Part shown: in pieces, positions 9,723 through 55,982 of the stretch | Numbering within the stretch: the first letter of the stretch is position 1 | Layout: every line of letters begins with the position of its first letter | Source of the DNA: Candidatus Sericytochromatia bacterium | GTDB taxonomy: Bacteria; Cyanobacteriota; Sericytochromatia; UBA7694 | DNA: 64,000 nucleotides | Direction of reading: 5' to 3' | Assembly: GCA_963797915.1 (NCBI GenBank) | Contig: CAWCRG010000017.1 | Coordinates: forward strand, 107,074 to 171,073 | The notes under the pieces: generated by a model | The model's database searches: none | Seen by the model: only the letters and a program-made list of their open reading frames with translations | What the model was told of the DNA's origin: nothing | Program-made: the position numbers and the translations under genes

Positions 9723-10996
9723 ATGTTAAATTTTGACCTCGTAGATATTGGTGAGCTACACAGCTTTGCCACCGACTTCTCTGGCCCGCTCACGCCCTCT
9801 CAAATCGCCCGGCACCTGCAACCCATTCGACAAGGGTTTCTACACATTCGAGAAGGTCGCGTGGCCGGTATGGGCTCCATGAGCGATTATCATAAACCCA
9901 CCAATGCCGATATTCCGCAGCAGAGCCTTGCGGGTAAGACCGTTCTGCCCGGCCTTGTGGATCCACACACCCATTTGGTTTTTGGGGGATCGCGTGAGCA
10001 TGAACTCGTGGCGCGCATTGAAAAACAACGGGATGAACAGCCTTCAAAAGGCGCGCGGATGCTGAGCGGGATTAATTACACCGTACAGTGTACCCGTGAC
10101 GCCTCTGCTGAGCAGCTGGCGACCGAGGCTTTAGGCCGCCTGGATCGTATGCTGCTTCACGGGACGACGACCGCAGAGGCCAAAAGTGGTTATGGCCTGC
10201 GTTTAGATCAAGAAATTAAACTCCTGGAAGTGGTGCAAGCCCTTCAATCGCAGCACCCCATACATTTGGTGTCTACATTTTGGGAGCTCATGCGGTGCCT
10301 CAGGGTATGGCGATGGACGACTACGTTGCACAGGTGTTGAAGATGATTCCTGTGATTGCAGAGCGCCAGCTGGCAAGTTTTTGCGATGTCTTTTGCGAGA
10401 CTGGTTTCTTTTCTGTAGAGGACAGTCGCCAAATCCTCAAGCTTGCCAGCTTTCACGGTTTAAAGTTGAAGGTCCATGCCGATGAGTTAGATCATTCCGG
10501 GGGGGCAGCACTTGCAGCAGAGCTGGGAGCGATCTCCGCTGACCATTTACAGTTTGCCAGTCAAGCTGATCTTGAGGCCATGAAAGCAGCGGGAACCATT
10601 CCGGTGCTTTTACCCGGTACCGCTTTTTATCTGGGTTTACCGTACGCCAACGCACAATTGATGCATCAGTTAGATATGCCCATTGCCATTTCTACCGACT
10701 TGAATCCCGGAGGCTGTTATTGTGAGTCTCAGGTCATGATGGCCGTTTTAGCCGTGACGCAAATGCATTTATTACCCGTCGAGGCTTTTGTGGGCATTAC
10801 CCGCAACGCGGCTTATGCTATTGATCGCGGCACTGAAGCCGGTACTTTGGCTGTGGGGCGCTCTGCTGATCTTGTGGTCGTTGACGCCCCCAATCTGGAC
10901 TATATTCCCTATCACTTTGGTGTGAACCTGGTGGAAGATGTCTATATTGGGGGACAAAAGCGAGTGTCAAAGGGCGTTTTAGAACCCGTCCTTTAA
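9723..10996 (+). CDS. hutI: Imidazolonepropionase (histidine utilisation), interrupted by a -1 frameshift at a T4 run (~10278..10284)
   Basis: VLPGLVDPHTHLVFGGSRE and HADELDHSGGAALAAELGA...AISTDLNPG motifs match HutI. ORF 9723..10340 (frame 0) and ORF 10280..10996 (frame 2) join as ...HLVSTF-LGAHAVPQG if a fifth T is inserted. Confidence 0.8.
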
Positions 10997-21481: not shown

Positions 21482-22423
21482 ATGCTGACTTCTCCGACCC
21501 CCTGGATCTTGTTTCTATTAGGGACCATTATTGGCAGTTTTCTGAATGTCGTTATTTATCGTACCCCTGTCATCCTATTGGCAGGTTGGAACGATGAAGA
21601 CGATGACGCAGAAGAAGTACTGGAAATTCCAGAAGCTTTTGGACCCCGTCTGGGGTTTACGCTTCGCTACTTTTTTTCAGATGTGCTGTACTCTTTTTCT
21701 TATTTGCTCAAGGACTTTTGGGTGGAGATCTATCAGGTGCTGAAGGGTCTGTCTTTTCCAGGCTCTCGCTGTGGTCAATGTCAGCGAGATATTGCCTGGT
21801 ATGATAATCTTCCCGTTTTGAGCTGGTTTATTTTAAGAGGGCGTTGCCGGCATTGTCATACAAGCTACAGTTTTCGCTATCCGCTTATTGAGTTTCTGAC
21901 GGGACTGCTCTTCGTTTATACCTATAGTTTGTATCCCCAACCTCTAGACTTAATGTTCTGGATTCCGTTGGTGAGCTTGTTATGGGCTATTTTTTGGATT
22001 GACCTTGATACCGAGTTTGTCTTCAATGTGATGACATACCCAAGTATTTTGCTGGGGATCCTATATAATGGGTCTAAAGTTAATTTGGGCTGGGCCTTAA
22101 TGGGTGGTCTGATTGCCTGGTGTTTCTTTGAAGGTGTTGCACTTTTGAGTGTTTTCCTCCTTAAGAAACAAGGGATGGGAGGCGGCGACGTTAAACTCGC
22201 GATTCTCATGGGCATCTGGTTAGGTCCTGAACAATTACTGGTGGCATTGGCGATAGCCTTTGTGACTGGGAGCATCGTGGGGGTAACTCTGATGTTAAAA
22301 CAAGGCGAAAGCAAACCTTTTCCCTTTGGTCCCTTTCTGGTGGTAGGTATGTTACTTTCCATGGCGGTTGGGGAACAACTGTGGGCGTGGTATATTGGTA
22401 AGTCAGTTTTGTCACCGGTATGA
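21482..22423 (+). CDS. pilD: Type IV prepilin peptidase / N-methyltransferase (A24 family)
   Basis: CGQC...CRHC zinc-binding tetracysteine, the GGGDVKL catalytic Asp motif and multiple TM segments. Contains an unusual ~60 aa acidic insert (NDEDDDAEEVLE...) after TM1. Confidence 0.8.
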   Translation: MLTSPTPWILFLLGTIIGSFLNVVIYRTPVILLAGWNDEDDDAEEVLEIPEAFGPRLGFTLRYFFSDVLYSFSYLLKDFWVEIYQVLKGLSFPGSRCGQCQRDIAWYDNLPVLSWFILRGRCRHCHTSYSFRYPLIEFLTGLLFVYTYSLYPQPLDLMFWIPLVSLLWAIFWIDLDTEFVFNVMTYPSILLGILYNGSKVNLGWALMGGLIAWCFFEGVALLSVFLLKKQGMGGGDVKLAILMGIWLGPEQLLVALAIAFVTGSIVGVTLMLKQGESKPFPFGPFLVVGMLLSMAVGEQLWAWYIGKSVLSPV

Positions 22424-22460: not shown

Positions 22461-23621
22461 ATGAACTTATTTGGTCGTGAAATAAACACGAAGAGCTTCC
22501 TTCGCTCTTTCTCCAGCCGTTTTTCTAAAGAACCCCCCATTGGTATTGATATTACCAATGAGTTCATTATTGCCGCTGAGCTTGCTGAAGTGCAAAATCA
22601 ACCGGGTCAATATGAAATCATTCGTCTGGCTCTCACAGAGACGCCTGAAGGCGCTGTTCGCGACGGAGAAGTGGTGGACAGCCTCCGCGTGGCGGAAGCC
22701 CTAAAAAACTTTTTAGATGAACATCAGTTTAAATCCCGTCGGGTCATCACCGCGGTATCAGGTCAAGCGGCGATTATTCGCCCCCGCATTAAGTTTCCTG
22801 CCATTCCGATTAAGGAATTACAGGAAGTGGTTATGCATGACGCAGAGCGCTATATCCCTTTCCCTATTCAGGATGTATATATTGACTTCCAGGTGACCGG
22901 TACCGTTGAAGAAGACAATATGACAAAGTATGATGTGCTGTTGGTGACCGCACAAAAACAGCTCATTGACACCTATATCGAGACCTTTGCCCAGGCAGAG
23001 CTTACGCTTGTGGCCGTAGATGTGGCTTCTTTCGCTGTTATGCGTGCTATCGAAGAGCAATTGTCTCAAGAAGAGGGCGAAGAACAGCAGCTTAATGTTT
23101 TGATTCTGATCCGAGGAGAAACCACTGATCTTAACGTCGTGCAAAATGGTGCGCCCCTTTTCTCTCGGAGTATTCCCTTGGGTAGTAGCACCATGATTGA
23201 AACCATCGCTGCAGGCATGGGGCTTGAACTTCAAGAGGCTGTGGCGCTTTTTGATAAGCTGGTTATTCCTGTGGTGGGCGATGAAACCTTTGAAGATCCC
23301 ATGGTCGAGCGCGCTGCTGATGAGATTCGTATGTTATTACAGGAGCTGACGGGTGAGATTAATAAATCTATTGACTACTTTCATCAATCGCAACAAGAAT
23401 ATATGCGTATTCAGCAGCTGATTCTTTCAGATCGTGGTGCCAAAATTAAAAACCTTGACCAGTACTTTGCCCATAAGCTGGGCATGGATGTCGAAATTAG
23501 TAACCCGATTCGCTCACTCTCATTTGATGAGACCGTTTTTTCAGCGGCTTATCTTAATGAAAATGCGCCTCTGTTTGCTACTGCGATTGGACTTGCACGG
23601 AGAGGAATTGAAGAAAATTGA
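22461..23621 (+). CDS. pilM: Type IV pilus assembly protein PilM (actin-like ATPase fold)
   Basis: 386 aa with the PilM-like pattern (IGIDI..., acidic central region). First gene of the pilMNOPQ cluster. Confidence 0.8.
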   Translation: MNLFGREINTKSFLRSFSSRFSKEPPIGIDITNEFIIAAELAEVQNQPGQYEIIRLALTETPEGAVRDGEVVDSLRVAEALKNFLDEHQFKSRRVITAVSGQAAIIRPRIKFPAIPIKELQEVVMHDAERYIPFPIQDVYIDFQVTGTVEEDNMTKYDVLLVTAQKQLIDTYIETFAQAELTLVAVDVASFAVMRAIEEQLSQEEGEEQQLNVLILIRGETTDLNVVQNGAPLFSRSIPLGSSTMIETIAAGMGLELQEAVALFDKLVIPVVGDETFEDPMVERAADEIRMLLQELTGEINKSIDYFHQSQQEYMRIQQLILSDRGAKIKNLDQYFAHKLGMDVEISNPIRSLSFDETVFSAAYLNENAPLFATAIGLARRGIEEN

Positions 23622-24178
23622 CACGCATTAGCATTAACCTTCTCGGCATTGACCGAAAGGAAGCACTTCAGCGCTCAGGCCTTAACATTGATAAAGGGCT
23701 AGCGATTGCTATGACCTCTATCATTATTGCGCTCCTGCTTCTTTTTGGGTCCAACGCCCTCATGAGCAGCCAGCTGGCTGCCGCTGAAGAGCTTAAAGAA
23801 GAAAACACATTAAAAATAGCAGCTCTCGATAAACAAATTGAAGAGATTAAAAGTCTCGAAAAAGAAAAAGCGGATAAAGAGATGGAGGAGAAAATCCTTC
23901 GTTACGTGACCGGAGAAACCTATCGCTGGTCTTATTTACTCCAAGAAGTCCGTTTGCTCATGCCCGTTGATATTAAAATTGATCAGTTATCCTTTAATCC
24001 CCAGGGTGAGTTCTCTTTGCAGGGCTCAGCCACCGATCACCGTTCAGTAGCGATGTTCCTGGCAAACCTTAAAAACTCGAAGATGCTGCAAAACATTCAG
24101 TTGCAAAGCAGCGAAAAACCTTCTGCAGAGGAACCAACTGTGTTTAGCATTACGTGCAAATTGAAAGTGGGAAGCTAA
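23618..24178 (+). CDS. pilN: Type IV pilus assembly protein PilN
   Basis: N-terminal INLLG motif, a single TM and a coiled coil. Overlaps the pilM stop. Confidence 0.7.
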   Translation: MTRISINLLGIDRKEALQRSGLNIDKGLAIAMTSIIIALLLLFGSNALMSSQLAAAEELKEENTLKIAALDKQIEEIKSLEKEKADKEMEEKILRYVTGETYRWSYLLQEVRLLMPVDIKIDQLSFNPQGEFSLQGSATDHRSVAMFLANLKNSKMLQNIQLQSSEKPSAEEPTVFSITCKLKVGS

Positions 24179-24181
24179 GTT

Positions 24182-24835
24182 ATGCCAACTATCGAAGCTT
24201 TCGGCCGTTCCTTTAATACCGACAATATTACGACCTTTCACAAGGTTTTAATTGGCGGAGTTACAGCTGCCCTGATTGTTTTTGGGGGAGGCTATCAAAT
24301 GGTCTATCCCAAGTGGGAAAACCTGCAAGTCCTTAACGAAGAAACAGAGCAACAGCAAAGCGATATCGAAAAAAAGCAAATTCAGGTAAAAAATCTGGAT
24401 AAACTTAAAGAAGAGTTGAAGGTTGTTCAGGCCAGTCTGGTGGCGCTGCGTCGTAAGATCCCAACAACGGCCAATGAGTCTCCACTGCTTTTAGATGTCG
24501 AAGAAATTACAGAAAATAAAGCGTTGTACGGTAACTCTGCGGTTTTGAACACCTTTAAGCCTGGCGGAATTGTTGACTTTACTTTGCCTGCTGAGTTACA
24601 GAGTGCTTCTGAATCTCCTGCTGCAAAGCAACTCAAGCAATTACCCGTACAGATTCAATTGAGCAAGGTGTCTTATCCTGAATTGATTGAGATGCTACAA
24701 GATCTTGAAAACTATGAACGAACGTTGAGCATTGAAGGCTTAACGATCGAACCCCAAAATGATCCCCAGGCCTTGTATACACCGGTCAATGTTTCTTTCA
24801 CATTGAAGGCCTTTTTGATAGAAGGAGCAAGTTAA
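24182..24835 (+). CDS. pilO: Type IV pilus assembly protein PilO
   Basis: TM helix, coiled coil and C-terminal periplasmic domain. Position in the cluster supports the call. Confidence 0.65.
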   Translation: MPTIEAFGRSFNTDNITTFHKVLIGGVTAALIVFGGGYQMVYPKWENLQVLNEETEQQQSDIEKKQIQVKNLDKLKEELKVVQASLVALRRKIPTTANESPLLLDVEEITENKALYGNSAVLNTFKPGGIVDFTLPAELQSASESPAAKQLKQLPVQIQLSKVSYPELIEMLQDLENYERTLSIEGLTIEPQNDPQALYTPVNVSFTLKAFLIEGAS

Positions 24836-25563
24836 TGTTAGGACACGCTTTAATCCTATCAAGTATGTGTGTCGCAGCGACAGGTCTCTTACTTTACTCA
24901 TTAAGCTTACCGCCTGAAGATTTAGGTAATGACCCAACAGTTATTGTGGTTGCGACGCCGGAGCCGGTTGTCACCGCCTCGGGCACCCCTGATACTGGTG
25001 AGTCTCCTGATGCTACAGTGGTTGCTGTCGCATCAGCTACGCCTGCCCCAACACCCACTCCCACCCCAAAGCCCACGGTAGATCCTTTAACGTCTTATAA
25101 TATTGCCGCGAGTACGCCTCAGGCCGTGCTTAGACAAGCCCAGGTGCATGCCGGGCGGGTGGATCCTTTTAAGTCTGTTCAGCCCCCTGATCTGCCCGAT
25201 TTTGAACCGGCTATTTCAGCGAATCAGCTGGCCTTACCCGCTGCGTTTCCGATGGTTAAGTCCGATAAACCCGTGAATACCGTCCCCTCTCGCACACCTA
25301 ATATTATAGAAACACAACCGACGCCTCCACCGGCAAAACCCCTGACACATGGGCTTTCCTTAAAAGGTATTATGGATGGAGGAATCGATCCGATTGCGAT
25401 TATTGAAATCAATGGTCGCACAGAGCTCTTTCGTGTGGGCGAACGCCTGCCCAATAATATTCGCGTCACTTCAATTAACTATGAAGAACGACGTGTGACT
25501 TTGTCTCGTGGCCAGGCTACGGGAACCCTTTATCTTCCCGAACCAAATAGCCCTAATTTTTAG
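24835..25563 (+). CDS. pilP: PilP-like pilus assembly lipoprotein with a Pro/Thr-rich linker
   Basis: Hydrophobic N-terminus, PT-rich low-complexity segment and a C-terminal beta domain (IIEINGRTELFRVGERL...VTSINYEERRVTL). Confidence 0.55.
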   Translation: MLGHALILSSMCVAATGLLLYSLSLPPEDLGNDPTVIVVATPEPVVTASGTPDTGESPDATVVAVASATPAPTPTPTPKPTVDPLTSYNIAASTPQAVLRQAQVHAGRVDPFKSVQPPDLPDFEPAISANQLALPAAFPMVKSDKPVNTVPSRTPNIIETQPTPPPAKPLTHGLSLKGIMDGGIDPIAIIEINGRTELFRVGERLPNNIRVTSINYEERRVTLSRGQATGTLYLPEPNSPNF

Positions 25564-25575
25564 GAGGAAAGACAT

Positions 25576-27174
25576 ATGAAAATTTCTACATTTAAACGTA
25601 AAAGCACAACTGCTCTTGCCACTTTAACCTTGCTAACGACCATGACTTCCACGGCATGGGCCGATAACAGACAGGTCGTTAATCCTCCTGTAGCAGGTGC
25701 TACTGACGCATTAACGATTCGTAAAGCCTTTCGTTTAGAAAAAGACCCCCTGATTAGCATTGTGCAACGCAATGCGAATGTGGAGTTTATTTTACGGGGA
25801 CTGGCGCAAAAAGCGGGCTTGAACCTGGTTTTTATGGCTGGTGATAACGCTGCTGCGACAGCGCAAGCTGCCTCCCTGGCACCCGCTTCATCGGGTGGAG
25901 ATGACGCTGCGTTAATGGAGTTAGCAGCGCTTGCGGGTAATACAAACGCCGCTTCTTCAGGAGCCGCTCCCAGTGCTATGGTTGCAAAAATGACCATTCC
26001 CTATCTGGAGTTGCGAGACATTCCATTGAGCGAAGCCTTTTCGCTTATTCTGCAAATGAGTGGGTTGAGCGGACGTCGGGTGTATAATTCGCTTATTATT
26101 ACAACGCCAGCAAAAATGGATCAAATGGGCTTTGCTTCCCCGCTCATTAAAACCTACACGATTTATAACCAGGCAGCGACGCTTGCTGTACAGAGTGGTG
26201 CCGCTGGTGGTGCTGGTGGCTGGTAGCTGCTGGTGGTGCTGGTGGCGGAGCGTGGTGGTGCTGGTGGTGCTGGTGGTGGCGTTATGTCGCCCATTGTGCA
26301 ACAACTCCAGGCTGTTTTTAGACGCCGTGGTTTGAACCCTGCGCCTGAGCTATTGATTGACCAGCGTACGGCAACCCTGATTGTGATCGGGAGCCAGGAA
26401 GCAATCGATATTGCTGATCAGCTGGTTCCTATACTTGACCGTGCTTTGCCTCAGGTGAATGTAGAAGTGAAAATGATTGAGCTTACCCAACGGGCAAGCC
26501 AGGAACTTGGCTTGAGTTATGAAATTGGGCAGGGGCAGACCGCTGCCGCCTTTAACAACAGCGCGATTTTACCGGGCCAGGCGCCGAATCCTCCTGCCGC
26601 TGAGGGTGAGTCACTCGTCAGCTTTAGCACCCTTAATCGCTTGGCCCCCAACTTTAGTGCGCGCTTGAACGCGTTGATTCGAGACAGTCAGGCCAGAGTG
26701 TTGACCAGTCCACGCTTGACGATTCAGCACGGAGTTCAGGCGATCTTTGACTCTACCACAGCGTTTCCTATTATTAGCACCACAGCTACAGCCACTGCGG
26801 CTACGCAGACGGTTCAGAGTATCAATATTGGTGAAAAACTGACGATTACGCCTTTTGTTGATTTGGAAAAAGGCTTGATTACGATGAAGCTGGTGCCTGA
26901 AATTTCTACCCGCGGTGAGTTGGTAAGTGCCGGTGGCCAGACCATTCCCGAAGTCAACAATCGCAAAGTTGATACGATTTTGACTGTTGAAGACGGTGAG
27001 TCGGTGGTCATTGGCGGACTGATGCGCAAAACGGATACCGAAGTCAAAAACAAGATTCCTTTATTGGGCGATATTCCTTTACTGGGCGCATTGTTTTCTG
27101 ATACGGTAACCAGCAAAGAAGATGTTGAAATTCTAATTATGGTTACTCCCCGTATTTTAAAGAGTGGCCGGTAA
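25576..27174 (+). CDS. pilQ: Type IV pilus secretin PilQ, interrupted by an in-frame TAG (26224..26226) inside a Gly/Ala (GGTGCT)n microsatellite
   Basis: ORF 25576..26226 has the signal peptide and N-terminal secretin/STN-type domains. ORF 26233..27174 is in the same frame and holds the secretin_N plus C-terminal secretin domain (IPLLGDIPLLGALF). A 19-nt direct repeat flanks the stop, with the second copy in a shifted frame. Confidence 0.8.
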
Positions 27175-27186
27175 GGTTATATTGCA

Positions 27187-27861
27187 ATGGCCGTATTCTT
27201 TGTGGAGATTACGGGAGATGATCGATTAGCGGTTACTACCCGTATCCAAAACAACCAGCTAACAGCAATTCGCGTCAAGCGTCAGGTGTATCAGCGTTCT
27301 GATCGCGTCGTGACAGATATTAAAGGGTTTGAGCCCTTTAATATTGGCGAATGGCTGACGCTGGTTAAATACGATAATTGGAAAGGCGAAGCGGTAAAAG
27401 ACTCTCTTCGCCCCACTCCCGCTTCTTTTTCTCCTTTGGGGATTCATGTCAAAGAAAATTGGGGCTTTCTGGACTCCTATCGTTTGCTCGATAAAATCTT
27501 TGAAGATCTCAAGACAAAATGGGAAATAGACTATATTAACTACGGGGGACTGCCTACGATGGAGTCTGAGCGCATGGAGCACTTTCAGCGCAATTTGCCA
27601 TTTGTGGAGCGCCTGATTGCCTATGTGCTGAACGATCGCACGATATTAGAATTACTGCGTGAAGAGCAGGCGATTATGCCGATGCCTCATCCTGGCCAGG
27701 ATGATTGGTTAATCGAGGTGAATGCGAAGGCGATGAACCGCACTGAAAAGCTTGCCTTGCGTGGGCGATTAAGCATAGAAAATCTGGGCACCCAACAAAT
27801 TATTACCCACCATCCCCGTGTTGAGGGTGAAGATATCGTTTCGGCCCAGCAGATCCTTTGA
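27187..27861 (+). CDS. Hypothetical cytoplasmic protein, co-transcribed with pilQ and the MlaE-like permease
   Basis: 224 aa, no signal peptide, no recognisable motif. 12-nt gap after pilQ and a 4-nt overlap with the next gene. Confidence 0.45.
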   Translation: MAVFFVEITGDDRLAVTTRIQNNQLTAIRVKRQVYQRSDRVVTDIKGFEPFNIGEWLTLVKYDNWKGEAVKDSLRPTPASFSPLGIHVKENWGFLDSYRLLDKIFEDLKTKWEIDYINYGGLPTMESERMEHFQRNLPFVERLIAYVLNDRTILELLREEQAIMPMPHPGQDDWLIEVNAKAMNRTEKLALRGRLSIENLGTQQIITHHPRVEGEDIVSAQQIL

Positions 27862-37073: not shown

Positions 37074-38990
37074 ATGACACAATCTTCAGCTCCCCCCGAT
37101 TTAAACCGTATTGGTGATTTGCTCGTAAAAGAAGGGCTTCTTACCCCGGATGCTTTACAAAAAGCCTTAAAGTATCAAAAGGACTCTGAGGGGTATAAAC
37201 CCCTCGGACGGGTTTGTGTCGATCTTAAGCTACTCTCTAAAGTCGATTTGCAACGCTTTTTGCGTAAACATCAAAAAAGTATTCACCTGGGAGATATCCT
37301 CTTGAATATGGGTTTGATTACCCATGAGCAGTTGAATCATGTTCTCGAACAGCAAAAAGTCACCCAATTGCGCTTTGGAGACTTGCTCGTTAGACACAAC
37401 GTGATTTCTGAGTCGCAATTGGTGGAGGCTTTAAGCTTACAGCTTGATTTGCCCCGTATTGTGCCCTCTCCGGAATTGGTTGACCGCGAACTATTGAAAG
37501 CCCTCGATGAAGGCTTTTTGAGATCTTATGAGTGCTTGCCGATCCATAAATACGAAAATCAAATGGTGGTGGTCATGTCGGACCCGCTCAACGGGGAGCT
37601 GATCCAGCGTTTGATCGATGTGTTTAAATGTAAAATTATGCCGTCTATTGCTACGCCCACAGAGATTTTGGCCTGTATCAGTGCGTTATTTGATGCCGAG
37701 TCCACCCGTTTGAACAATTTAAACATGGACCATGACTTACTGCAGGTGACCCACCAACATCATCTGAGTGAAGAAAAACTCATGCCCGTGGCTCAGTTTT
37801 TGGTGCGTTCTGCTGTAGAGGCTGGAGCCACGGCGCTGCATGTGGAGACCCATGAAAATTATGTGCGTGTTCGCTATCGTATTGACGGTGTCTTGCAGCA
37901 TAAAACCGATCTTCCTCAGCGCATGGCCCCCATGCTCATTCAGTGTATGAAAACACCGTTTCGCTTAAAACGTCAGCGGTATTGGGAAGAACATATCACC
38001 ACGCAAGTGGGAACGAAGAAAGTGAATTTGTCGATCTCCTTTTTTCCAGGCATCTGGGGCGAAAGCCTTGTGATGCATATTTCTCATCCCAAAGCAAATT
38101 TTATTGGTTTAGAATATCTGGGCTTGTCTCCCTTTGTGCAAGGGCAGTTGAATAGAGGCTTGTCTCGTGCCGGTGGCTTAATGATTGCCGTCAGCCCCAT
38201 TCGTAACGGCAAGACCACCCTGCTCTATTCTTGGTTGGCTCACGTGGGGAAAGCGCATCACAATACCCTAACCCTCGAAGATAATATTGAGCATCAGTTG
38301 CCTGGCACAACCCAGTACCAATACCCTCCTAACTCCACCGACAGTTATGAATCCATGATCGAAGCGATGATTGATTATGACTCTGATGTCATGATGGTGA
38401 GTGCCGTTAAAAATAAAGAAGTGGCGTTGCGCTTGAATCGCGCTGCATTGGTGGGCAAAAAAGTTTTTTCTTCGGTGGCCTCAAACGATACAACGACAGC
38501 CATTTATCAGCTCATGGAGATGGAGGCCAATGCGCTATTGGCAACTCCAGCGCCGGTCATGCTGGTGGCGCAGAAGCTTTTGCGTAAACTCTGCGAGCAT
38601 TGCCGTGAGGCGGTTCCTCTGGCGGCTGTTCAATTGCAGAAACTGGGCGTGACGCTAAAGCAGACAGAAAAGCGTTCGGTATATGAGGCGCGCGGGTGCG
38701 AAGCGTGTGAGCACCTGGGATACTCAGGAATGACAGCTCTACATGAAGTGTTTGAAATCTCTGAAGCCGATCGCCAGGTGATTTTGAAAGGCGGAACCGC
38801 CTCTGCGATTCGAGAACAGGCACGCCAGCACCGGCGTCTGATGTCAATGGTTGAAGACGGTGTTTATAAATCATTGATTGGTTTGACTAGCCTCGAAGAG
38901 GTATTGAATACCGTGCTGATTTATGAGGAAGATCTTAACACCCCGCGCAATGTGGAAGACATTTATTATTTGTGTAACGGTGAGGCTTAA
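37074..38990 (+). CDS. Catalytically degenerate GspE/MshE-family pseudo-ATPase with two tandem MshEN-type c-di-GMP-binding modules, a GspE_N domain and the C-terminal Cys4 zinc site
   Basis: Four copies of the 24-residue MshEN motif RLGxxLLxxGLLxxxxLxxxLxxQ (for example RIGDLLVKEGLLTPDALQKALKYQ). Walker A is degraded (SPIRNGKT vs GPTGSGKST), Walker B GEIRD is replaced by SAVKN, and both His-box histidines are lost (VGKKVFSSVASN). The CxxC...CxxC zinc site is retained. Confidence 0.7.
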   Translation: MTQSSAPPDLNRIGDLLVKEGLLTPDALQKALKYQKDSEGYKPLGRVCVDLKLLSKVDLQRFLRKHQKSIHLGDILLNMGLITHEQLNHVLEQQKVTQLRFGDLLVRHNVISESQLVEALSLQLDLPRIVPSPELVDRELLKALDEGFLRSYECLPIHKYENQMVVVMSDPLNGELIQRLIDVFKCKIMPSIATPTEILACISALFDAESTRLNNLNMDHDLLQVTHQHHLSEEKLMPVAQFLVRSAVEAGATALHVETHENYVRVRYRIDGVLQHKTDLPQRMAPMLIQCMKTPFRLKRQRYWEEHITTQVGTKKVNLSISFFPGIWGESLVMHISHPKANFIGLEYLGLSPFVQGQLNRGLSRAGGLMIAVSPIRNGKTTLLYSWLAHVGKAHHNTLTLEDNIEHQLPGTTQYQYPPNSTDSYESMIEAMIDYDSDVMMVSAVKNKEVALRLNRAALVGKKVFSSVASNDTTTAIYQLMEMEANALLATPAPVMLVAQKLLRKLCEHCREAVPLAAVQLQKLGVTLKQTEKRSVYEARGCEACEHLGYSGMTALHEVFEISEADRQVILKGGTASAIREQARQHRRLMSMVEDGVYKSLIGLTSLEEVLNTVLIYEEDLNTPRNVEDIYYLCNGEA

Positions 38991-38992
38991 GG

Positions 38993-41347
38993 TTAATCGG
39001 GCTTCACTTTAGAAAGGGCCTCTTCAAGGGAGGTTAGGCCTTCTTTAACCTTGCCCATGGCATCCCAGTAGAGGGTAATCATGCCCTCTGCAACGGCCAT
39101 CTTTTTAAGGGCTTCAGCCGAAATACCTGGCTGTGTGATGGCGTTGCGAATGCTCTCATTGGGCACCAGTAGCTCATGAATGCCTGTCCGACCGCGGTAA
39201 CCCGTGTCATTGCAGGCCTTACACCCCTCTGCCTTATAAAGCGTTAACGGCGTACCGTTGGTGTGTCCCAATTGATTCATTTCTAGCTCGCCAGCCTCAT
39301 AGGGTGATTTGCATTCTGTACATAAGCGGCGTATCAGGCGTTGGGCACAAATCATGAGTACGGAAGGGCTAATCATAAAGGGAGAAATGCCCATTTCAAT
39401 AAATCGCGTCAGGGTAGAAGCTGCATCATTGGTATGCAGCGTAGATAAAAGCAGATGACCCGTAAGGGCTGCCTCGACGGCAATATGTGCGGTTTCGTGA
39501 TCTCGAATTTCTCCCACGAGGATCACGTCGGGATCCTGGCGAAGGTAAGCGCGTAAGGCGCGGGCAAACGTGAGTCCAATTTCGGGCTGGACCTGGAGCT
39601 GGTTAATATTAGGCAGGGTGTACTCAATGGGATCTTCAGCGGTTTGAATATTAATGTGGGGTTGATTAATTTCATTGAGGGCTGAATACAGCGTCATTGA
39701 CTTACCTGAGCCGGTGGGTCCCACATGTAAAATCATACCGTAGGGGCTTTGCAATAGCTCGCGATAACGCTTTAGGTTATAGTCTGAAAAACCAAGTGAT
39801 GACAGCGGTAGCATGCTTTTTTGCTTGTCTAAAATACGCATGACCACTTTTTCGCCATAGTTCATGGGGGCTGTCGAAATACGCAGGTCAAAGTCTAAGC
39901 CTTTGCGATTAAACTGTTTATAGACAATGCGACCATCCTGGGGCAAGCGCCGCTCCGCAATATTGAGCTGTGCCATGATTTTTAAACGGGCCGAGAGGGG
40001 CTGGATCAAACTGGCCGGTGTGAGCTGATGATAGTCTTTTAAGATCCCGTCTACGCGGTAACGCACCCTCACGTTGTGCTCCCGGCTCTCAATATGAATA
40101 TCTGAGGCTTTTGCCTCATAAGCTTCCTCGATTAAACGATTCACTAAGCGAATCATGGGAGCGCTTGTGGGATCGTCTAAGCCGACGACTTCTTTCGCGC
40201 TGTTGCTATCGCTGACATACTGAGACTGCAACTCATCCATGAGATCTTCCATCTCATGCGCCTTTTGTTTGGGGGTCTTGGGTGCCGCGGGCACTGTTAC
40301 AGCTCCAGCTGCTGCGGGCGTTTGTTGAAACAAGCGTTGTAAGACCGCTGGAATGGCAATGAACCGTGACGCTTTACGATAGTTAAGGAGGGTGTCCTGA
40401 ACTTCAATTTGAAAGGGATGAGCGAGGGCAAAGCTCAATTGGTTTTTGTCGTTATCAAAAGGAACCACGCTGTACTTACGACAAAAGGGCATGGGGAGAA
40501 CGCCGGGTCTAAGCTGTTGGGTTTCTACATCGGTTAAAAAAGGCAAGCCGGTATAGGTCGAGACCATTCCTGCGGTTTGGCTGGCGCTGACGCCGTGTAA
40601 AAGCAGTTGCTCGTAAACATTGTCTGGCTTGAGATCCTTGACGATTTCCTGAGGAAGACTTTCTTCTAGAAATTTGCAAAATCCGGCAAAACTTGCGCGA
40701 TCGGCCTGGGAGCTTGACTGCGTTTTTTGTGGGCTTTGGGGGACTAAGCTGAGTTCTTTGGCTGCGGGTACAAACAGGTTTTCGGCAACGGCTGCGGTTT
40801 GGGGCTGCGCGGCTGCAAAAGCCGGTAAAGGGGGAGTAGATACCTGGGGCGCTTTTTCAATCTGACTTTGTTCAGCAGTCTTTGCCAGGGGAGGCTCTGG
40901 TTTAGTAGGGGCTTTAGCAGGGGCTGAGGGTGTCTGAGCGACAAAATTGCTGCGCCACTGTTTTTCGACTTCCAGTGCCTTTTTGACTTGCTCACTCAAT
41001 ACCTCTAGCGTCAGTGGTTTATTTAAGAAACCCACGGCGCCCATTTGAAAAGCCTGTAGACGATTTTCAGCTTGTAAACTCGCGGTAATCATAATGATCG
41101 GAATCAGAGCCAGCCGAGGATCTGACTGTAGCTCTTCACACACCTCATAACCCGACATACCCGGCATCTCAATATCCAGTAAGATCAAGCGGGCTTCGAG
41201 ATGATGCTGGCGTAAAAGCTGCAGTGCTCTTTTGCCGTTATCTATCGCTTCTACGGTAAACCCGGAATGACTGAGCATGCTCTTGACGAGCGTGCTCATG
41301 TCCTTATCATCATCTATAACGAGAATATCTACGTTCTGCATATACAA
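38993..41347 (-). CDS. Response-regulator receiver (REC) domain fused to a GspE/PilB-type secretion/pilus assembly ATPase
   Basis: N-terminal REC with the phospho-acceptor context (LILLDIEMPGMSG). GspE_N domain. Intact Walker A (GPTGSGKS), Asp box, Walker B (VGEIRD), His box (TGHLLLSTLHTN) and Cys4 zinc site. Confidence 0.8.
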   Translation of the reverse strand: MYMQNVDILVIDDDKDMSTLVKSMLSHSGFTVEAIDNGKRALQLLRQHHLEARLILLDIEMPGMSGYEVCEELQSDPRLALIPIIMITASLQAENRLQAFQMGAVGFLNKPLTLEVLSEQVKKALEVEKQWRSNFVAQTPSAPAKAPTKPEPPLAKTAEQSQIEKAPQVSTPPLPAFAAAQPQTAAVAENLFVPAAKELSLVPQSPQKTQSSSQADRASFAGFCKFLEESLPQEIVKDLKPDNVYEQLLLHGVSASQTAGMVSTYTGLPFLTDVETQQLRPGVLPMPFCRKYSVVPFDNDKNQLSFALAHPFQIEVQDTLLNYRKASRFIAIPAVLQRLFQQTPAAAGAVTVPAAPKTPKQKAHEMEDLMDELQSQYVSDSNSAKEVVGLDDPTSAPMIRLVNRLIEEAYEAKASDIHIESREHNVRVRYRVDGILKDYHQLTPASLIQPLSARLKIMAQLNIAERRLPQDGRIVYKQFNRKGLDFDLRISTAPMNYGEKVVMRILDKQKSMLPLSSLGFSDYNLKRYRELLQSPYGMILHVGPTGSGKSMTLYSALNEINQPHINIQTAEDPIEYTLPNINQLQVQPEIGLTFARALRAYLRQDPDVILVGEIRDHETAHIAVEAALTGHLLLSTLHTNDAASTLTRFIEMGISPFMISPSVLMICAQRLIRRLCTECKSPYEAGELEMNQLGHTNGTPLTLYKAEGCKACNDTGYRGRTGIHELLVPNESIRNAITQPGISAEALKKMAVAEGMITLYWDAMGKVKEGLTSLEEALSKVKPD

Positions 41348-48150: not shown

Positions 48151-49188
48151 GTGACGGTTTTTAAAGACAAGCGCTTTTGTTCGGATGTTTTTCAATTTAT
48201 CAAACACCATGATTTGATCCTTCCGCAAAAGCGCTATCTTTTGGCCGTTTCTGGAGGTTTAGACTCCATGGTGCTGCTGCATTTTTTTCAGCGCTTTGCT
48301 CATAAACGTTATGGCTGTACTTTTGCCGTGGCTCATTTGGATCATGGCTTAAGGGCGGAGTCTTCTGCTCAGGCCCAGGCTCTTGCGGATTATTGTCAGC
48401 GCGAACAGATTTTGTTTTATAGTGAGCGACGGATACCGCTTCGATCGGTGACGCAAAGTTCCTTAGAGGCCCAGGCTCGCTCGGTGCGTTACGCCTGGTT
48501 GGCGCAACAGGCAAAAAACCACGGTTTTGATGGGGTGATAACGGCCCACCATGCCACGGATCAGCTAGAAACCAGCTCTGATGCAGTGGATACGTGGAAC
48601 TTCAGTACCTCAGGGAATGCGCCCACTGAAAAATCTTTTGGTGGATGGCTTTTCTTTAACCGTCACCCGTCCTTTCTTATCGGTTTCTCGGAGTGACTTA
48701 GCACACTATCATCAGCATTACATGCTGCCCTGCTGGGAAGATCATCGAATCAGGATCCCGCTTTTATGCGCAATCGTCTACGCGCTCAGGTACTGCCTTT
48801 ACTCATCGACGAAAACCCCAATCTGGAATCCACAATAGTGGAACATACTGTCGTTATTCAGCAGGAGCAGGACTATTTGCGAAATTGTATGCTCCAGCAT
48901 TACCCTGAATGCGTATCCGTGACAGACCCAGACACAGCGCAGGAAAACACGCTTGTTTTAAATCTGCCCCCCTTTGCTGAGCTTCATGGGGCGATTCAAC
49001 GCTTATTGCTAAAAGAAATGCTGACTCGGCTAAGTGCCGGAAGTTGGAAGGTATTTAGCGCCCGACATATTGAGGCCTTACAGCAGCTAAGCACGGCACA
49101 AAGCCACAAAACGCTGCATTTACCACTCAACGTGGTCGTTACTAAAGCGAGGCGACACCTCCTGTTTCAAAAAGTATGTTATCACTGA
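48151..49188 (+). CDS. tilS: tRNA(Ile)-lysidine synthetase, interrupted by two frameshifts (~48560-48600 and ~48735-48770)
   Basis: PP-loop SGGLDSMVL in ORF 48151..48696. The middle conserved block (RPFLSVSRSDLAHY...WEDHR) exists only in ORF 48581..48838, which is in another frame. The downstream block DPAFMRNRLRAQVLPLL lies in ORF 48766..49188. Confidence 0.7.
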
Positions 49189-50776: not shown

Positions 50777-51453
50777 TTAAGGGGCTTGCATTTTTGCCAC
50801 AAACCCCCGTGTAATCACTTGAGGACGTGTAATTGCTGAGCCCACCACCACCGCATGAGCCCCCAACTTAAGTGCTTTAGCTGCTTCTTCTGGTGTAGAG
50901 ATGCGCCCTTCCGCGATCACGGGAATGTTAAGTTGTTGTGCCATAGTGTGCAATAGGTCAAAATCTGGCCCTTCCGGTGCGAACTGTTCCCTCCATTGAC
51001 GTAACCCGCCAATGTCGTCCCTGCGCAATCAAAACCTAACTGTTCCGCCCATAATGCCTCTTCAAGACAAGAAATATCGGCCATCAAACACACTTTTCCT
51101 TTGAGCTGCTCCACGATGCTTGCCAGTGATTCTTGCGGCCGGGGACGTTGTGTCGCATCCAGGGCGATAATATCTGCGCCCGCCTCCAGTAGAGCCAGGG
51201 CTTCTTTGAGGGTGGGCGTAATATAGACTTCTGAACCCGCGTATTGCTGTTTCCAAATACCAATGACCGGGGCATCGGTCATTTGTTTGACTGCAGCGAT
51301 GTTTTCTGGGCCACTGAGGCGCAGTCCACCCGCGCCCCCAAGCATTGCTGCTTGTGCCATTCCGGCCACAAATGCGGTATTATAAAAGGACTCCTGTGCC
51401 TCGGGTTGGCAAGAAACCAGGAGTTTTTGCCAGATTTTCTCAATGTTAAACAA
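50777..51453 (-). CDS. nanE: N-acetylmannosamine-6-phosphate 2-epimerase, interrupted by a frameshift (~50950-51028)
   Basis: ORF 50917..51453 has the LLVSCQ..., PVIGIWK and IALDAT...LMADIS blocks. ORF 50777..51028 has the C-terminal PDFDLL...IPVIAEGRI...[10 protein letters not shown]. The two are in different frames. Confidence 0.7.
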
Positions 51454-54569: not shown

Positions 54570-54980
54570 TTACTGAACGCTGGGCTCAGGCAGTGCTTCT
54601 TCTCGGGTTAGCCATTTTTTAAACGTGCGGAGACTTTTCGTTTCGTCCAAAGGGTACTCCTCGTCAGGCTCTAACCAGTAGTGACAAACATCAGAGATTA
54701 AGTCATCATCCCAACTTATTTTTTCTGCGTGCAAAAGACTTTCCGCGATCAAGGTCAGGCTTTCTGCACGCATGTCTCCCTCAAGGCTTGCTTCGCAAAA
54801 CACGACAAGATCTGCGGGCTCAATGGTGTGTACTGAGTCCATGTCTTGAAATGTGTAGTGATAGCTGGCCTCTTCTTCATCTTCTTCATCCCGATAAAAC
54901 TCTTCATCCAGGGCGTCTTGAAGTTCTTGTAAATCAATTTGTTCCTGAAAGAAGTGTAAGAGAATGTTTTCGTTCAGCAT
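54570..54980 (-). CDS. Small highly acidic hypothetical protein, immediately downstream of menC
   Basis: 136 aa, about a quarter Asp/Glu, no recognisable motif. 0-nt gap to the menC stop. Confidence 0.4.
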   Translation of the reverse strand: MLNENILLHFFQEQIDLQELQDALDEEFYRDEEDEEEASYHYTFQDMDSVHTIEPADLVVFCEASLEGDMRAESLTLIAESLLHAEKISWDDDLISDVCHYWLEPDEEYPLDETKSLRTFKKWLTREEALPEPSVQ

Positions 54981-55962
54981 TTAATCTATTTTCCTGATAT
55001 ATGTAGTATTCCATTTTAACTGGTGTTGGAGCTCGGCAGTAAAGAAGGCTTGCTCAAAGCGGAGCTTCCCTTGTTTTATCTGGATTTGAGGTGTCCAAAC
55101 ATCGGTCTGAAAAGACTGATGGGTATCCAGTCCACAAGGGGTTTCGGGTGCGTGTTCTGCCGCGTATTTTGCGAGATAACTCAAACCCACACTGGTTTCA
55201 AAACAAGCACTAAAAACAATTTTCTTCTGACTGTGCTTCGCCCATTGAAGCAGTTGAGCTAAGCGATCCGGTCCCAACACCATTGGCTTAATCACAAAAG
55301 CGCTGGCCTGAAGCAAAAAAGACGGGTCCGCGCTGGTCAGTGATTCATCTAAAGCAATGTATTGCCAATGTTCCAATTTCAACTTAGCATATTCTGCTAT
55401 GTCTCGAAAAGGTTCTTCAAAATACTCCACGCGACGTAAATCAAAAGCTTCTGTAAAGGCATTAAACGTTCGACTGTTCCAGCTGCGATTGGCGTCGAGT
55501 CTGAGCGTAATATCAGGGTAATCGTTGAGTACGTCCCGTATACGCTGAATTTCGAGGGAAAGTGTTTTAAGACCGACTTTAATTTTAAAACACCTGTACC
55601 CCTGGGTGTAACGTTCACGAACACACCCATGAAAGGCATCGGTATCCAGTCCGCTAATCAAAGTGTTAATGGGCAGGGGAGAGTAGGAAGGGCGAACCAC
55701 ACGTGGGGTTTGAAGTTGATGTAATCCCCATGCCACTGAAGGGAAGAGAATGTCAGGAGGCTTACCTTTTTGGATCTGCTTTAGCTGCTGAACACAGTCC
55801 GCTAGTGTTTCGGGTTGTAGGCCGGGAAAGGGAGCGACTTCGGCAAAATGCGGCCCATTGTCACCCTCAACACAAAGGATCAATCCGTCGCGATCGGAAA
55901 AACGCCCCTGCTGCAGCTGAATGGGCTGGTGGTAGGGGCGTTTATACCGATAGATACTCAGG

Positions 55963-55982
<20 letters not shown>
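54981..55982 (-). CDS. menC: o-Succinylbenzoate synthase (enolase superfamily)
   Basis: KIKVG, RLDANRSW, EEP and ALDES metal-ligand blocks. 333 aa. Menaquinone context with menB nearby. Confidence 0.7.

Follow-up and report, generated by a model that had tools for sequence, protein, structure and literature searches.

Type IVa pilus secretins (PilQ) are represented by the structures from Vibrio cholerae (6w6m), Pseudomonas aeruginosa (6ve2/6ve4) and Neisseria meningitidis (4ar0). They combine an N0/STN-like domain and one N1-like domain with a C-terminal secretin domain, and their genes stand at the end of a pilM-pilN-pilO-pilP-like cluster. AMIN domains are typical of proteobacterial PilQ, though not universal among pilus secretins. 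Neisseria PilQ carries small basic repeats, with in-frame polymorphism of the repeat number in the secretin linker. Null alleles of pilus secretins are common in nature because pili are phage receptors. For long-read assemblies, two reports describe indels that fragment genes (PMC9262707, PMC12007338).

Here we analyse a PilQ-like secretin gene that appears as two open reading frames (ORFs) in a stretch of 64,000 nucleotides from a Candidatus Sericytochromatia assembly (the window, throughout). Its predicted domain order and its place in the gene cluster are those of type IVa PilQ, and V. cholerae PilQ is the top structural match to the model of a homologue. Unlike type IVa PilQ, it has no AMIN domain, it scores under the NCBIfam PilQ cut-off and about equally on GspD, and it belongs to a clade of proteins of about 500-540 aa that is specific to Sericytochromatia and Melainabacteria. 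It also differs in having two low-complexity inserts, one rich in Ala/Ser within N0 and one rich in Gly/Ala, which is predicted to separate strand 1 from helix 1 in the N1-like domain. As with the Neisseria repeats, the latter is a periplasmic low-complexity repeat with a copy number that varies in frame across strains or species; here, however, it is composed of Gly and Ala, probably lies inside the N1-like domain and is out of frame in the window. The interruption resembles gene-fragmenting indels in draft and long-read metagenome-assembled genomes, being unique to one assembly, set in a low-complexity tract and accompanied on the same contig by further frameshifts at short homopolymers (hutI, nanE, tilS). 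It departs from them in that one of these frameshifts at least, the one in hutI, also occurs in an independent assembly.

Results

Together the two ORFs make up a single PilQ-like secretin gene (Table 1). Both share one frame (25576 and 26233 are each 1 mod 3), and the original prediction was right that this frame is continuous across the TAG and that the GTG-initiated downstream ORF follows it. The repaired translation aligned at 100% coverage and 83-88% identity with single proteins of 515-537 aa, and also end to end with P0122 (524 aa); the closest homologues come from Candidatus Sericytochromatia and Melainabacteria assemblies and are unsplit proteins of 498-540 aa. The public record holds two separate proteins, P0123 and P0006, the latter a 310-aa version of the downstream ORF. 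A strong AGGAGG Shine-Dalgarno sequence stands 9 nt upstream of the upstream ORF, which opens with a Sec-type signal peptide (MKISTFKRKSTTALATLTLLTTMTSTAWA/D, judged by eye) and closes with the codons GGT GGC TGG TAG. At the N-terminus of the downstream ORF (MVLVAERGGAGG...) we recognized no signal peptide by eye, the basic n-region and hydrophobic core being absent, and no Shine-Dalgarno sequence precedes GTG 26233 or GTG 26242.

Table 1 Positions of the secretin gene, its linker, the pil cluster and other interrupted genes in the window
Feature	Position	Strand	Remarks
hutI (imidazolonepropionase), split in two ORFs	9723..10996	+	1-nt deletion, T-run 10278-10281
pilD (prepilin peptidase)	21482..22423	+	Pfam match; intact
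pilM	22461..23621	+	PilM_2 Pfam match; intact
pilN	23618..24178	+	PilN Pfam match; intact
pilO	24182..24835	+	PilO Pfam match; intact
pilP-like gene, in the pilP position	24835..25563	+	only weak T2SSC match; intact
PilQ-like secretin gene, one	25576..27174	+	about 531 codons after repair; split into two ORFs as assembled
Upstream ORF, 216 aa	25576..26226	+	signal peptide, putative N0/STN, strand IKTYTIY, start of Gly/Ala linker; ends in TAG
GGT/GCT-rich low-complexity tract coding for the Gly/Ala linker	26195..26283	+	Tandem Repeats Finder, composition
18-nt repeat, copy 1	26203..26220	+	in frame, reads AGGAGG
Stretch out of the Gly/Ala frame, about 32 nt	26221..26253	+	offsetting indels near 26221 and 26252/26253
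In-frame TAG	26224..26226	+	same bases are part of GTA GCT (Val-Ala) in the Gly/Ala frame
18-nt repeat, copy 2	26229..26246	+	out of frame, reads LVVLVA
Downstream ORF, 313 aa, GTG start	26233..27174	+	rest of linker, rest of N1-like domain, secretin barrel domain
18-nt repeat, copy 3	26260..26277	+	one mismatch, in frame again
tilS (tRNA(Ile)-lysidine synthetase)	48151..49188	+	offsetting +1/-1 pair, 171 nt apart
nanE (N-acetylmannosamine-6-phosphate epimerase)	51453..~50730	-	frame change ~50990-51000, short homopolymer GGAGGGAAC

Profile searches placed a complete Pfam secretin domain in the downstream ORF (PF00263; 144.6 bits, cut-off 27.5, the whole profile from position 1 to 169), where the match to Secretin_N (PF03958) begins only at profile position 27. 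The STN profile (PF07660) matched residues 134-176 of the upstream ORF at 23.5 bits, under the gathering score of 28.4. No match to AMIN (PF11741) was found in the ORFs of the window or in the intact homologues P0001 and P0122. With the downstream ORF, a fragment and not the repaired protein, as the query, the NCBIfam PilQ model (TIGR02515) scored 149.9 bits against a cut-off of 284.35, about the same as the GspD model (TIGR02517; 157.7 bits, cut-off 351.35). The earlier designation of the gene as a PilQ secretin was supported with a qualification: the name PilQ rests on gene context and fold, and the NCBIfam PilQ score lies below its cut-off. We call the protein PilQ-like by context because pilD, pilM, pilN, pilO and a gene in the pilP position lie directly upstream. 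The secretin gene closes this pilD-pilM-pilN-pilO-pilP-like operon, and the gene order is the same in the relative L005 and in other relatives.

Structure prediction was carried out with AlphaFold2 on P0001, a homologue of 88% identity (mean pLDDT 68.7). The model places a putative N0 at residues 59-174 as a beta-alpha-beta-beta-alpha-beta unit with a disordered insert at 90-135, followed by the strand IKTYTIY at 188-193 and a disordered Gly/Ala loop at 206-219. After the loop come a helix (222-234), two strands, a second helix (257-270) and the barrel. Foldseek returned V. cholerae PilQ (6w6m) as the top match (E=1.7e-19) and 42 PDB matches at E<=0.001, and nearly all of the matches listed are secretins; the N0 domain of N. 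meningitidis PilQ (4ar0) matched weakly (E=6.6e-3). The predicted structure thus has the secretin fold of N-domains and a double beta-barrel. The intact homologues align to the Secretin_N profile only beyond the loop, beginning at profile position 15-16, so strand 1 of the N1-like fold probably precedes the loop, and the break in the window probably falls inside this fold. The second low-complexity insert, Ala/Ser-rich and about 45 residues long, lies in N0 (window ~25840..25990, residues ~88-135); it is predicted to be disordered, and its length differs among the relatives in this secretin clade.

The linker tract is G-rich (68.5% G+C and 54% G over 26195-26283; 48.5% G+C in the window as a whole). 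Tandem Repeats Finder describes it as an imperfect array of period 9 (GCTGGTGGT) with 8.1 copies, 75% matches and an underlying period of 3. The original prediction of a (GGTGCT)n microsatellite therefore stands as to a repeat-rich Gly/Ala tract, but the array is an imperfect one of period 9/3 and not a clean (GGTGCT)n. The direct repeat that it reported is real: ccgctggtggtgctggtggc (26201-26220) recurs 26 nt further on as ctgctggtggtgctggtggc (26227-26246), with one mismatch in 20 nt and a stretch of 18 nt identical, and the number of such matches expected from shuffles of the window is 0. Its statement that the second copy is read out of frame, as LLVVLVA in place of AAGGAGG, was likewise correct. 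The third copy is back in frame because it lies 57 nt from the first.

The frame shift in the secretin is local. Three-frame translation followed the Gly/Ala reading in frame 1 up to 26220, in the -1/+2 frame from 26223 to 26252 (VAAGGAGGGA) and in frame 1 again from 26254, and the TAG exists only within the shifted stretch. The net length change of the indel pair is a multiple of 3. Alignment of the window with L001 gave indels of +2 and -2, and alignment with L005 gave +20, +1 and +3; their exact positions are ambiguous in this repetitive sequence. Alignment to relatives therefore bears out the proposal of two compensating indels; the accompanying idea of simple slippage does not hold for a repeat of period 3/9. 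We rejected other readings of the break. In a tandem duplication of 25-26 nt the lengths do not fit, and the copies differ at five of the first eight positions. Slippage, or an out-of-register assembly join within the repeat, would yield only in-frame changes at a period of 3. A phase-variable on/off repeat is incompatible with the period of 3/9 and with the length differences among relatives, all of which are in frame. The indels in the window are not whole repeat units.

We compared the locus with ten related alleles that span the linker (L001-L005, L008, L009/L010, L014, L018 and L019). All ten are uninterrupted, with a linker of 16 to 37 residues that is always in frame and differs in length in every relative. 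DNA identity to the window is 95.07% over 10.6 kb for L005, about 80-83% for L008, L009/L010, L014 and L019, 79% for L002 and 74-76% for L001, L003, L004 and L018. Apparent breaks in L009 and L010, considered as further split secretins, were runs of N. On this comparison the interruption is unique to this assembly. Linker apart, only three indels separate the window from L005 over the 10.6 kb: the pilP-like gene differs by 9 nt, in frame, and two indels of a single base lie between genes. When changes were polarised with L008 and L002 as outgroups, the branch of the window received 2 nonsynonymous and 21 synonymous ones, and that of L005 received 6 and 16. Codon differences between the two are 5 nonsynonymous to 23 synonymous in the upstream half and 10 to 50 in the downstream half. 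Judged by these counts, both halves are under strong purifying selection and neither has decayed, which would make the break either very recent or not real.

Searches for the same allele elsewhere covered several collections. A protein-pattern scan of JGI metagenome contigs gave no match, an exact 20-mer scan matched only L007, which is unrelated and matched by chance, and a scan of GTDB genomes returned only L001 at 85% identity. A look-up of contigs with the exact P0006 sequence returned none, and these scans gave no second, independent sequence of this genotype's secretin region. Among nine truncated contigs from other assemblies, four stop at or in the linker, one at its end (L006, in which the last ~27 nt have no match to the secretin) and three at their starts (L011, L012 and L013). 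These four come from independent short-read assemblies of relatives. Because four of the nine truncated contigs end at or inside the linker, the tract is hard to assemble and is a recurrent break point of assemblies.

As a gauge of assembly quality, we searched the window for further broken genes and found three. The hutI gene has four T in the window where the relative L020 has five; one added T restores a product of 424 aa with a TIGR01224 score of 408 bits, and the gene is intact in relatives at 87-89% identity. The same frameshift is present in the Logan contig L022 (run ERR12040027), which matches the window at 99.914% identity over 5,844 bp with no gaps. Logan drops k-mers that are seen once in a run and keeps those seen at least twice (PMC12424806). 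Four of the five differences between L022 and the window are synonymous, which suggests a separate genotype and not noise, and hutI is probably a true pseudogene. Since the frameshift recurs in this independent k-mer assembly, at least one of the inactivating indels of the lineage looks real. We found nothing relevant in the literature on run ERR12040027.

The tilS gene, which is essential to nearly all bacteria, carries one additional base at ~48574 and lacks one after ~48745, with an in-frame TGA (48694-48696) in between. Its TIGR02432 score rises from 116 to 175.5 bits when the middle 57 codons are read in the other frame, and the indel pattern is of the same kind as in the secretin. The third gene, nanE, is intact at 225 aa in relatives that are at least 90% identical (P0261, P0262). 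Altogether the 64 kb contain at least six frame-breaking indels, clustered and mostly at short homopolymers, with no excess of nonsynonymous changes, a profile that fits consensus error. An ORF pair tested as a further frameshift (1445..2542 and 2346..5075, +) overlaps by 197 nt and has no Pfam matches; the first of these ORFs (365 aa) has no homologue except itself in 5.8 billion proteins, in a database that includes close relatives of the genome. In a MenC-like gene (54981..55982, within 54570..55982, -) the stop is followed directly by the same-frame start of a 136-aa ORF that has no Pfam match, and these are probably two normal adjacent genes.

Discussion

We put at even chances that the indel pair is a sequencing, consensus or assembly error and that a full-length secretin is made. 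As assembled, two offsetting indels about 32 nt apart push part of the Gly/Ala-coding tract out of frame, and GTA GCT is read as ..G TAG CT.., giving the stop. Past the second indel the frame is restored, so that one gene looks like two ORFs in the same frame. On the technical reading the pair would have arisen when the G-rich, low-complexity tract was sequenced, assembled or reduced to a consensus, and the cells would make a normal full-length secretin. We infer this technical origin because the interruption is unique, the halves are undecayed, nanE is frameshifted and the linker troubles assemblers, and because tilS, normally essential, bears the same pattern of offsetting indels. It is also quite possible, if short of an even chance, that the indels are real and that the strain or population carries a very recent loss-of-function allele. 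The cell would then export an N0 fragment and make at most a cytoplasmic, non-exportable barrel fragment; it would lack type IV pili and could not take up DNA by way of this channel. The hutI frameshift on the same contig, found again in an independently assembled, slightly different genotype, argues that the lineage has real pseudogenes; low-complexity tracts are mutation hot spots, the length of this linker varies from relative to relative, and the public record has the same two ORFs. However, two independent indels 32 nt apart in an otherwise undisrupted and unrelaxed gene are improbable except as the product of a single complex event. The second would have had no selective value as compensation, since it lies downstream of the stop. 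The genes pilD, pilM, pilN, pilO and pilP are all intact, none of the ten relatives shares the break, and a biological origin is hard to credit for the same indel pattern in tilS. An offsetting pair with the correct net length fits a mis-phased consensus better. We think it very improbable that the interruption is real and the Gly/Ala tract a hypermutable hot spot, where complex indels switch the secretin off and possibly on again. Such switching would take place in a Sericytochromatia population, for example one under attack by pilus-dependent phages, and the offsetting pair would be the trace of an off event followed by partial reversion.

Two further readings would leave the sequence as it is and still allow a working protein. 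That the secretin is genuinely split, its N0 module and its N1-plus-barrel module forming a working channel as separate polypeptides, had been offered in the original prediction as the alternative to indels; we consider it very improbable and reject it. The downstream ORF is in frame, starts with a GTG 7 nt past the stop and contains a complete secretin domain. The barrel half, however, could not reach the outer membrane because it has no export signal and no Shine-Dalgarno sequence, and the break probably lies within the N1-like fold, with IKTYTIY before the loop and helix 1 after it. The LLVVLVA that replaces Gly/Ala between the indels looks like a frame error and not a designed boundary. 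Comparison with close relatives had been proposed as the check for a real split, and the stop is absent from all ten; nor is the arrangement conserved in any of about 40 family members of 498-540 aa. Literature searches on split secretins and on Sericytochromatia pilQ returned nothing relevant. Least probable of all is recoding, by which read-through or suppression of the TAG, or a -1 followed by a +1 ribosomal frameshift, would give the full-length protein. The continuity of the frame across the stop would allow it, but TAG also terminates eight further ORFs in the set of the 62 largest in the window, one of them the pilP-like gene immediately upstream. We rejected reassignment or read-through of the stop codon, since TAG is a normal stop here and the window contains no tRNA gene and no Rfam element. 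A programmed origin is opposed by the lack of a slippery heptamer at GGC TGG TAG and of any such site in the relatives, and restoring the Gly/Ala sequence would take two separate shifts.

The main consequence is for annotation: the two ORFs are best counted as a single secretin gene, whether mis-assembled or a pseudogene, and should not be read as evidence for a two-part secretin. Nothing at the locus departs from known kinds of event, since a recent knock-out and an assembly error are both ordinary. A real allele would mean no more than a recent loss of pilus and DNA-uptake function in this strain, which is a common event. The same contig carries at least three more broken genes (hutI, nanE and tilS), and inferences of gene content from this genome therefore need to be checked against reads.

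The gene next downstream of the secretin in all related contigs examined (27187..27861, +, in the window) encodes a 224-aa protein without a Pfam or NCBIfam match and is followed by mlaE and a gene for a lytic transglycosylase; the cluster of this protein at 90% has 13 members, and the protein could be an unrecognized partner of the secretin. Farther downstream, two convergent genes encode PilB/GspE-type ATPases with T2SSE and MshEN domains (37074..38990, +, and 38993..41347, -), and the 784-aa ATPase carries a response-regulator receiver domain at its N-terminus.
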